Position numbers and translations under genes: made by a program | IMG/VR virus record: IMGVR_UViG_2667527657_000003 | Length of the DNA: 9,108 bases | Direction: 5' to 3' (one strand) | Source of the DNA: a virus | Lineage: Duplodnaviria; Heunggongvirae; Uroviricota; Caudoviricetes | Notes under the pieces: model-generated | What the model was told of the DNA's origin: nothing | Database searches by the model: none | The model's input: only the letters and a program-made list of their open reading frames with translations | In this document: positions 3,386-3,988 of the stretch, in pieces | Numbering within the stretch: the stretch's first letter is position 1 | How the letters are laid out: the number at the start of each line of letters is the position of its first letter

Positions 3386-3988
3386 TCATGGCATGGCCAT
3401 GAGCATTTTCACGTCCGCATCACCGTCTGCTGACGTCTGTGGCACGCCACCCTGTACCGCTGCCGGTGAATGGTTCGCCATGAAATGTTCAAACATGGCG
3501 GTTGTGGATGCAGAAACCGGTTCTGCCCTGCCTGAGGCTGCCGCCAGTACAGCCCGGGCATTCTCCACGGTCATCCCCGGACAGGCCGCCAGTTTTTCAG
3601 CCTGCGCCTCTGCCCCTTTTGCCTCATCCAGGGCCATAATCTGATCACGAAGTGAGGGTCCGGCATTCGCCTGCGGTGAAGCAGCCAGAATCGGACGGGC
3701 TTTTTCCACCGTCATCTCCGGCATCGCCGCCAGCGTTGCCGCCAGTTGTTCACGTCCTTTCGCCTCTTCACATGCCATAATGCGATCGGCTTCACTCTGC
3801 GCAGATACACCAGATTGTTGCGGTGCCGCCACGGCCAGAATCGCCCGGGCCTGCTCAACGCTCATACCCTGTTGCCCTGCCAGCATCGTGGCCAGTTGTT
3901 CACGTCCTTTCGCTTCCTGACACGTCAGGATCCCCATCACTCGCTGGTTCTCCTGCGCGGCAGCCTCCGTTGCAGTTAATTGCGGCAT
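3386..3988 (-). CDS. Nu3: Scaffolding protein (lambda Nu3 analogue), an in-frame internal start within C
   Basis: An internal ATG at 3986-3988 (MPQLTATEAAAQ..) is preceded on the - strand by AGGAGG (+ strand cctcct, 3993-3998). The resulting 200-aa product in the C frame matches the lambda arrangement in which Nu3 is nested in the 3' part of C. Confidence 0.55.
   Translation of the reverse strand: MPQLTATEAAAQENQRVMGILTCQEAKGREQLATMLAGQQGMSVEQARAILAVAAPQQSGVSAQSEADRIMACEEAKGREQLAATLAAMPEMTVEKARPILAASPQANAGPSLRDQIMALDEAKGAEAQAEKLAACPGMTVENARAVLAAASGRAEPVSASTTAMFEHFMANHSPAAVQGGVPQTSADGDADVKMLMAMP

Follow-up and report, generated by a model that had tools for sequence, protein, structure and literature searches.

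The window analysed here, a stretch of 9,108 nucleotides from a Caudoviricetes virus record, holds a head gene resembling lambda C/Nu3, and the part of this gene that would encode the scaffold looks like three tandem copies of one unit. The locus raises the questions of whether this array is real, how old it is, how common it is among related phages and what three copies of the unit might do for a scaffold protein that is also the C-terminal part of a protease.

Gene context and geometry of the repeat array

The sequence-only reading of this DNA had called the gene a protease/scaffold gene of the C/Nu3 type, and its S49 domain, its PHROG and its nested start all agree with that call. The 501-aa ORF matches the Pfam family Peptidase_S49 (PF01343) at aa 147-292 with an E-value of 3.1e-33 and 115 bits, the family cut-off being 24.9 bits, and it matches PHROG 53, head maturation protease, with an E-value of 9e-221. 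The S49 domain fills the N-terminal two thirds of the ORF. At an ungapped offset of +1885, the nested 200-aa frame has the coordinates of the gene 6 CDS in the record of the phage 21 head operon (M81255.1) and of the "scaffolding protein" CDS in the later complete phage 21 genome (OL657228.1), in which the CDS pair is named "capsid protease/scaffolding protein" and "scaffolding protein". The Shine-Dalgarno sequence overlaps the gene 6 ribosome-binding site annotated in both of these records, and the region of the internal start, GGAGGCACTATGCCGCAA, is kept in five of the five aligned alleles. The nested scaffold start is a predicted one, matching the annotated gene 6 of phage 21 in position, ribosome-binding site and conservation. 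Judged by homology, the 501-aa ORF encodes a head protease of the S49 family and, nested in it, a scaffold protein, in the manner of lambda C/Nu3 and phage 21 gp5/gp6. The gene order obtained by tblastn with the neighbours from a relative (L005) is A, W, B, (C), D, E, FI, FII, Z, U on the minus strand, and the C/Nu3 gene sits between the portal and the decoration/major capsid genes, as in a lambda-type head operon.

From its reading frames, the prophage in the window is a degraded remnant of a phage-21-type lambdoid prophage. The portal gene (4881-6474, minus strand) is covered by two overlapping ORFs of 351 and 207 aa with a frame change near 5482-5501; an intact 530-aa portal aligns by tblastn with residues 1-331 in frame -1 and residues 325-521 in frame -2. 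This gene is likely a frameshifted pseudogene. The large terminase gene, on the same strand, changes frame close to its C-terminal end, near 6711-6741, residues 6-624 lying in one frame and residues 616-642 in another (the region of the change extends over 6661-6741, minus strand), and the small-terminase ORF has 107 aa, compared with a product of 182 aa called in a relative. The head module appears to have been broken by an IS at its terminase end. A 62-aa ORF at 8908-9096 (within 8557-9096, minus strand) adjoins the small-terminase ORF and reads as the C-terminal end of an IS3-family transposase.

At the other end of the module, the U homolog (~159-521, minus strand) can be followed only as far as residue 119 of 131, which lies near position 159; from there the ORF continues into unrelated sequence towards a tRNA. 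No tail tube, tape-measure or tip genes were found beyond the U homolog in the window, and the prophage is truncated at its U end. The window opens within a tRNA gene, of which the 3' part occupies positions 1-69 (plus strand): Rfam RF00005 matches there with 54.6 bits over model positions 6-71, the 5' end being cut off; ARAGORN missed the tRNA at these positions. Its anticodon loop was read as CTGTCAC, giving GUC and thus Asp, and a terminator-like hairpin, AAAGCCCGAATCA...TGATTCGGGCTTT with a T-run, follows the tRNA at ~80-112. The prophage remnant abuts this tRNA. A mosaic boundary lies after the major capsid gene, between 518-1897 and 1916-8570: the A, W, B, D and E products are 88-97% identical to those of L005, and those of FI, FII, Z and U only 47-58%. 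The C/Nu3 ORF itself is intact and is probably left without working partners in the window prophage.

Table 1. Features of the protease/scaffold gene in the window and length alleles of its homologs (allele lengths are those of the protease-scaffold protein).
Feature	Position	Strand	Remarks
Head maturation protease with C-terminal scaffold part (lambda C / phage 21 gene 5 homolog)	3386..4891	-	501 aa, GTG start
Predicted nested in-frame scaffold protein (lambda Nu3 / phage 21 gene 6 homolog)	3386..3988	-	200 aa, ATG at 3986-3988
Shine-Dalgarno AGGAGG	3993..3998	-	Read from sequence, 4 nt upstream of internal ATG
Repeat unit 1 (aa 314-358), Tri1 box	3818..3952	-	HMM, alignment, phage 21 annotation
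Repeat unit 2 (aa 367-409), Tri box	3665..3793	-	HMM, alignment, phage 21 annotation
Repeat unit 3 (aa 414-457), Tri3 box	3521..3652	-	HMM, alignment, phage 21 annotation
Exact 23-mer copy in unit 1, coding AKGREQLA	3891..3913	.	Identical to 3741-3763
Exact 23-mer copy in unit 2, coding AKGREQLA	3741..3763	.	Identical to 3891-3913
451-aa allele (P0085)			Front of unit 1 fused to back of unit 2; exact 150-bp loss
452-aa allele			Unit 2 lost
472-aa allele			Front half of unit 2 lost
482-aa allele			Back half of unit 2 lost
501-aa allele			Three units
551-aa allele			Four units
657-aa allele			156-aa tandem duplication

A repeat search of the window found one repeat family. Its three copies, each of 94 nt, occupy 3543-3636, 3684-3777 and 3834-3927; successive copies are offset by 141 and 150 nt, and the outer two are 66% and 73% identical to the middle one. 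When the protein was compared with itself, the best diagonals lay at offsets of 50, 47 and 97 aa with scores of 112, 104 and 100. Shuffles of the 200-aa scaffold part (n = 300) gave a mean score of 34 (sd 5.4) and a maximum of 56, which places the observed score of 112 about 14 sd above composition-matched expectation. An HMM of the unit recognised three domains of ~45 aa with spacings of 50 and 47 aa (Table 1), in accord with the three in-frame units that had been proposed for this gene, and the self-comparison shows the expected periodicity clearly, far above the shuffles. Unit 1 holds a 3-aa insertion (GIL), which is also present in the single unit of lambda. Pfam has no domain over the repeat stretch. 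Tandem Repeats Finder reported no array at the locus; since this program usually misses copies that are less than ~70% alike, its blank is not evidence against the repeat. The 23-mer GCCAGTTGTTCACGTCCTTTCGC recurs with the same letters in units 1 and 2, exactly as the sequence-only reading had noticed, at a spacing of 150 bp. The identity stops at the ends of the 23-mer, and it is the sole exact direct repeat of at least 15 nt in the 9.1-kb window.

The three units in phage 21, its relatives and the wider family

The closest known counterpart of the gene lies in phage 21. Phage 21 gene 5 is 92% identical to it at the nucleotide level across all 1506 nt, ungapped, and record M81255.1 carries three repeat_region features inside gene 6, the "Tri1 box", the "Tri box" and the "Tri3 box". 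By the ungapped offset these map to 3818-3921, 3671-3781 and 3527-3640 of the window and fall on HMM units 1, 2 and 3, respectively. The note attached to these features reads "function unknown; putative". On this correspondence of position, the three repeats are the Tri boxes of the phage 21 scaffold gene and thus an already known feature; the earlier presentation of the repeat as something unusual is not upheld, the boxes being annotated in the GenBank record of phage 21 already.

The array is also common. The 603-nt scaffold region occurs in 1870 of the 5426 complete E. coli genomes, about a third, and the match was ungapped over the 603 nt in 38 of the 40 rows sampled evenly down the E. coli ranking. 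All 20 phage records of phage-21 type carry the full-length form, including phage 21, ev017, 4A7, 1W, 3W and the PhiR series. In Salmonella, Gifsy-1 can be aligned with the scaffold part over its entire 200 aa (57% identity), the proteins P0271-P0283 have three units at 53-64% identity to the window, and the three units line up column by column across 22 E. coli and Salmonella sequences. Taken from these alignments, three units are the normal state of the phage-21/Gifsy-1 lineage.

Two observations on close relatives may be added. The E. coli O121 strain 201805972 (L008, NZ_CP119441.1) is a listed complete genome with a 100% match to the scaffold region, and its gene context is a different and also degraded one, in which the portal is truncated and IS1 elements have inserted into capsid and head-tail joining genes. 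The protein cluster nearest to the window protein (P0004, 99% identity) is assigned to Shigella flexneri by its NCBI name.

One could suppose that the periodicity simply reflects how rich in alanine and low in complexity the scaffold part is, or that it is an artefact of the assembly of the window. The residues A, E, Q and L are indeed abundant, and the blank of Tandem Repeats Finder at the locus would be in keeping with this. A self-alignment score ~14 sd over the shuffles is not, however, what composition yields, and the same units are found in independent phage genomes, with phage 21 sequenced twice, and in a large share of the 1870 E. coli genomes that have the region. We give this explanation practically no chance of being right and regard it as ruled out by the shuffles, the independent phage genomes and the prevalence in E. 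coli.

Outside the lineage the picture is different. We searched 1.84 billion representative proteins with a profile built from the three units, which gave 428 at E ≤0.001, and the best 150 of these 428 (representatives at 50% identity) were re-scanned with an iterated HMM. Among the best 150 of the 428, a single unit is present in 140 and two or three units in the other 10; for those of at least 380 aa the figure is one unit in 52 of 53, and 51 of the same 53 are also matched by the S49 domain of the window. In these longer representatives the unit begins near aa 350 and is followed by ~51 residues. Lambda C (NC_001416) has a single unit according to the unit HMM, at aa 357-400, in agreement with the sequence-only reading, which had given lambda C/Nu3 one unit. 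The broader idea that three copies are not the ordinary state stands for the wider family, where 140 of the best 150 representatives have one unit, and falls within the lineage itself, where three is the rule. At the level of profile similarity, the unit is shown to be a recognisable element common to S49 protease-scaffold proteins from many hosts. In one distant protein with two units (P0163), these two are most alike each other (63%), suggesting that the duplication probably arose independently elsewhere; P0163 would then represent a unit duplication outside this lineage.

Age, selection and exchange between the units

The units are strongly diverged at silent positions. Identity between units 1 and 2 is 0.67, 0.75 and 0.44 at the first, second and third codon positions, and third-position identity is 0.44, 0.33 and 0.27 for the three pairs of units. 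The Nei-Gojobori dS between units is 1.4 and 2.0 for two pairs and not computable for the remaining one, meaning that synonymous sites are saturated. Unit 1 is 65-78% identical across different proteins, and the units inside one protein are 44-58% identical to one another. As unit 1 is closer between proteins than to its own sister units, at least its split from them predates the divergence of these enterobacterial lineages. The saturated synonymous sites and the position-wise match of the units between E. coli and Salmonella indicate that the triplication is old. The proposal that the units came from successive duplications of different ages finds no support here, since dS is saturated for all three pairs.

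The same codon-position pattern bears on the possibility that the repeat acts at the level of DNA or RNA, as a set of protein-binding sites (for example for CII) or as a structured RNA. In OL657228.1, the complete genome of phage 21, two matches to ttgynnnnnnttgy within this region are labelled "CII binding site", on the strand opposite to the gene; in the window, the pattern is found on the plus strand at 3736-3749 (TTGCCGCCAGTTGT) and 3970-3983 (TTGCAGTTAATTGC), and the exact 23-mer is itself a case of local DNA identity. The similarity of the units nevertheless peaks at codon positions 1 and 2 and is near background at position 3, a signature of protein-level conservation that makes a DNA-level function unlikely. 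Only one of the two pattern matches lies inside a unit, where it has no counterpart in the other units, and the 23-mer is not kept in phage 21 or in other alleles. Rfam found no RNA family in the repeat region. On balance, a role of the repeat as DNA or RNA seems very improbable. CII sites inside the repeat were rejected as a mere consensus match and not an experiment. One of the ttgynnnnnnttgy matches overlaps the 23-mer.

In phage 21, and in the 482-aa and 551-aa alleles, the stretches that correspond to the 23-mer read GCGAAAGGACGTGAACAGCTTGC and GCGAACGGTCGTGAACAACTGGC and differ at 4 of 23 positions; in the window both read GCGAAAGGACGTGAACAACTGGC. Because the same stretch differs at 4 of 23 positions in phage 21 and the other alleles, the 23-mer is not the relic of a young copy. 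It is, as judged by this comparison of alleles, a local, lineage-specific homogenised patch, and gene conversion between the units would explain it most simply.

Substitutions relative to phage 21 were used as a measure of constraint. The dN/dS ratio is 0.034 for unit 1, 0.18 for unit 2 and 0.062 for unit 3, with 0.093 for the protease domain, and from these ratios each of the three units is under purifying selection. We also observed that dS relative to phage 21 is uneven within the gene: it is 0.67 in unit 3 and 0.03 in the adjoining C-terminal tail (aa 458-501), with values of 0.18-0.29 in units 1 and 2 and in the protease domain. This unevenness, at 3386-3652 (minus strand), suggests recombination breakpoints inside or beside the repeats. 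In a partial E. coli homolog (P0284), units 2 and 3 are nearly identical (GDQIMALLEAKGREQLARTLAEQPGMTVEQAKTLLAAAP and GEQIMALPEAKGREQLAQALAEQPGMTVEQAKMLLVAAP), which points to a recent duplication, or a conversion between units, in another lineage.

Natural length alleles add to this picture. Length classes were drawn up from 120 protein clusters at ≥78% identity with the unit HMM and by inspection (Table 1). In the 451-aa allele the crossover lies inside the conserved AKGREQLA patch; two independent contigs carry this allele, and its neighbours there are intact. For the 482-aa protein, the index of an assembly collection lists 3592 blocks, and its head module looks intact. The junction of this allele was found in 56 complete genomes with a 44-nt junction query, which suits the 482-aa allele and does not discriminate the 451-aa junction, as that one lies in the repeated patch. 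Short alleles of 2 or ~2.5 units stand beside a portal of 530 aa and a capsid protein of 342 aa. Shortened alleles were absent from the 20 cultured phage records of phage-21 type and were seen in prophages only. By the junctions of these alleles, contraction through unequal recombination is shown to occur.

Expansion is a different matter. The 551-aa alleles come from L004 (5279-5368) and L009, that is, from two assemblies with neighbouring accession numbers (GCA_900537015.1 and GCA_900536945.1), and each of them has two otherwise identical 150-bp copies with an N at the last base of both. The 657-aa allele (L010 2501-4474, CP007136.1) holds a perfect 468-bp tandem duplication, seen in one genome as a 460-nt exact repeat at a 468-nt offset. 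With N-terminated identical copies in the former and a perfect duplication from a single genome in the latter, both were rejected as firm evidence of expansion; they look like assembly artefacts or very recent duplications. The suggestion that the repeats are a substrate for both expansion and contraction is thus confirmed for contraction (451, 452, 472 and 482 aa), whereas expansion beyond three units rests on artefact-like assemblies. Among the homologs with three units, P0190 has valine at nearly every alanine (VVVLVDM for AAAPADT) and other oddities; it has the look of a gene called from reads with C-to-T conversion, such as bisulfite treatment produces, rather than of a genuine variant.

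Predicted structure, proposed role and comparison with known scaffolds

The structure of the scaffold part was predicted with AlphaFold2. With close relatives only, the mean pLDDT was 53.5; when Salmonella homologs were added it was 68.9, with 74-81 in the units and a pTM of 0.25. The linkers at aa 55-63 and within the block 101-110 were of low confidence. The predicted unit consists of a first helix (RIMxx), a turn (EAKGRE), a second helix (xLAxxLA), a loop (PGMT) and a third helix (VExARxILAAA). A sequence search of the PDB with the 200-aa scaffold part returned nothing at E-values up to 10, and no similarity in sequence or fold to the solved scaffold domains of P22 or phi29 was detected.

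In lambda, Nu3 is the scaffold, for which interactions with E, C, B and itself have been reported (PMC3224144); the Nu3-E interaction comes from a two-hybrid assay and is not mapped to the repeat unit (PMC3224144). For P22, binding to the capsid protein is stated to be under the control of a small helical motif in the scaffold (PMC11922011).

The comparisons above show a module that is present once in lambda and in most S49 protease-scaffold proteins, and that an old tandem triplication turned into the three-unit form, since kept at matching positions in the E. coli and Salmonella relatives. The repeats recombine with one another at the DNA level, which has left the homogenised 23-mer patch in the window and, in some prophages, in-frame deletions that take away unit 2 wholly or partly. 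Beyond this, each unit would fold by itself into a small module of three helices, strung on flexible linkers in the manner of beads. The unit could be a protein-interaction module of the scaffold, which during prohead assembly would most likely touch the major capsid protein on its inner face, or else further scaffold molecules. Three copies would make the scaffold multivalent, and the same valency might be conferred on the protease, which would be carried in through the shared C-terminus. That the array as a whole consists of three ~45-residue helical Tri modules, formed by an old triplication and serving multivalent scaffold interaction, is in our judgement probable, if far from assured. We are much more tentative about its most specific form, in which the Tri unit would be the capsid-binding module of lambda-type scaffolds and its copy number would set the valency of scaffold and protease for the shell; this we think rather doubtful at present. 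If the valency reading is true, the number of units would affect the nucleation rate, the fidelity of assembly or the amount of protease packaged, and the natural alleles (one unit in lambda, three in phage 21, 2 or ~2.5 in prophages) would form a ready series on scaffold valency.

It could also be that function needs no more than one unit, or just the C-terminal tail; the additional units would then be padding that is tolerated, and copy number would drift by unequal recombination in a largely disordered scaffold without consequence for assembly. Lambda and 140 of the best 150 of the 428 family representatives manage with one unit, 2- and ~2.5-unit alleles sit in intact-looking head modules, and the 482-aa allele recurs in 3592 assembly blocks and 56 complete genomes. 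The title of Medina et al. (2011) terms lambda gpNu3 intrinsically disordered, and the inter-unit linkers have low pLDDT in our prediction. Mere padding would, however, hardly be under purifying selection as strong in every unit as in the protease domain (dN/dS 0.03-0.18), nor would E. coli and Salmonella, at 53-64% identity, share the same position-wise layout of three units; moreover, three full units are present in 20 of 20 cultured phage records, the short alleles having been seen in prophages only. We hold padding, the main rival, to be less likely, with a minor but real chance of being right, and retain multivalent scaffold interaction as the preferred reading.

The observation of the triple repeat is correct, and the feature is real, old, common and already annotated. 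As a discovery it carries little weight, the Tri boxes being in M81255.1 already and in about one third of complete E. coli genomes. What is added here is that one unit is the norm of the family and that this unit is the one conserved element of the scaffold part in S49 protease-scaffold proteins. Further additions are that each copy is under purifying selection, that a patch probably due to conversion is specific to this lineage, and that deletion alleles with 2 and ~2.5 units occur naturally. Together, the conserved unit, the selection and the natural alleles offer an inexpensive way to approach the contact between lambda-type scaffolds and the capsid protein, which is still poorly defined for lambda.

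Among known systems, genes 5 and 6 of phage 21 are nearest to the window gene, sharing the gene pair, the ungapped length of 1506 nt, the internal start, the ribosome-binding site and the three repeat segments. The two proteins differ at ~7% of their amino acids; the AKGREQLA-coding stretches of units 1 and 2, which differ at 4 of 23 positions in phage 21, are identical in the window, and the window copy lies in a degraded prophage. Gifsy-1 and other S49 protease-scaffold proteins of Salmonella and enterobacteria likewise have three units at the same positions, but are only 53-64% identical to the window protein and end in other C-terminal tails. Lambda C/Nu3 has the same plan of an S49 domain followed by a scaffold part with an in-frame internal start, between the portal and the decoration/capsid genes. 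Its unit, ENSRIMGILNCEEAHGREEQARVLAETPGMTVKTARRILAAAPQ, can be recognised; within the conserved core, its identity to the units of the window is 53-65%. Lambda C has, however, one unit in 439 aa where the window protein has three in 501 aa, and the segment from the protease domain to the unit is unrelated in sequence between the two. The helix-turn-helix coat-binding domain of the P22 scaffold, finally, is alike as a functional analogy only, in that it, too, is small and helical and lies close to the C-terminal end of a scaffold protein that is for the most part flexible. Compared with this motif, the unit of the window is predicted to have three helices and not two, is repeated, and is then followed by a tail of ~44 residues.
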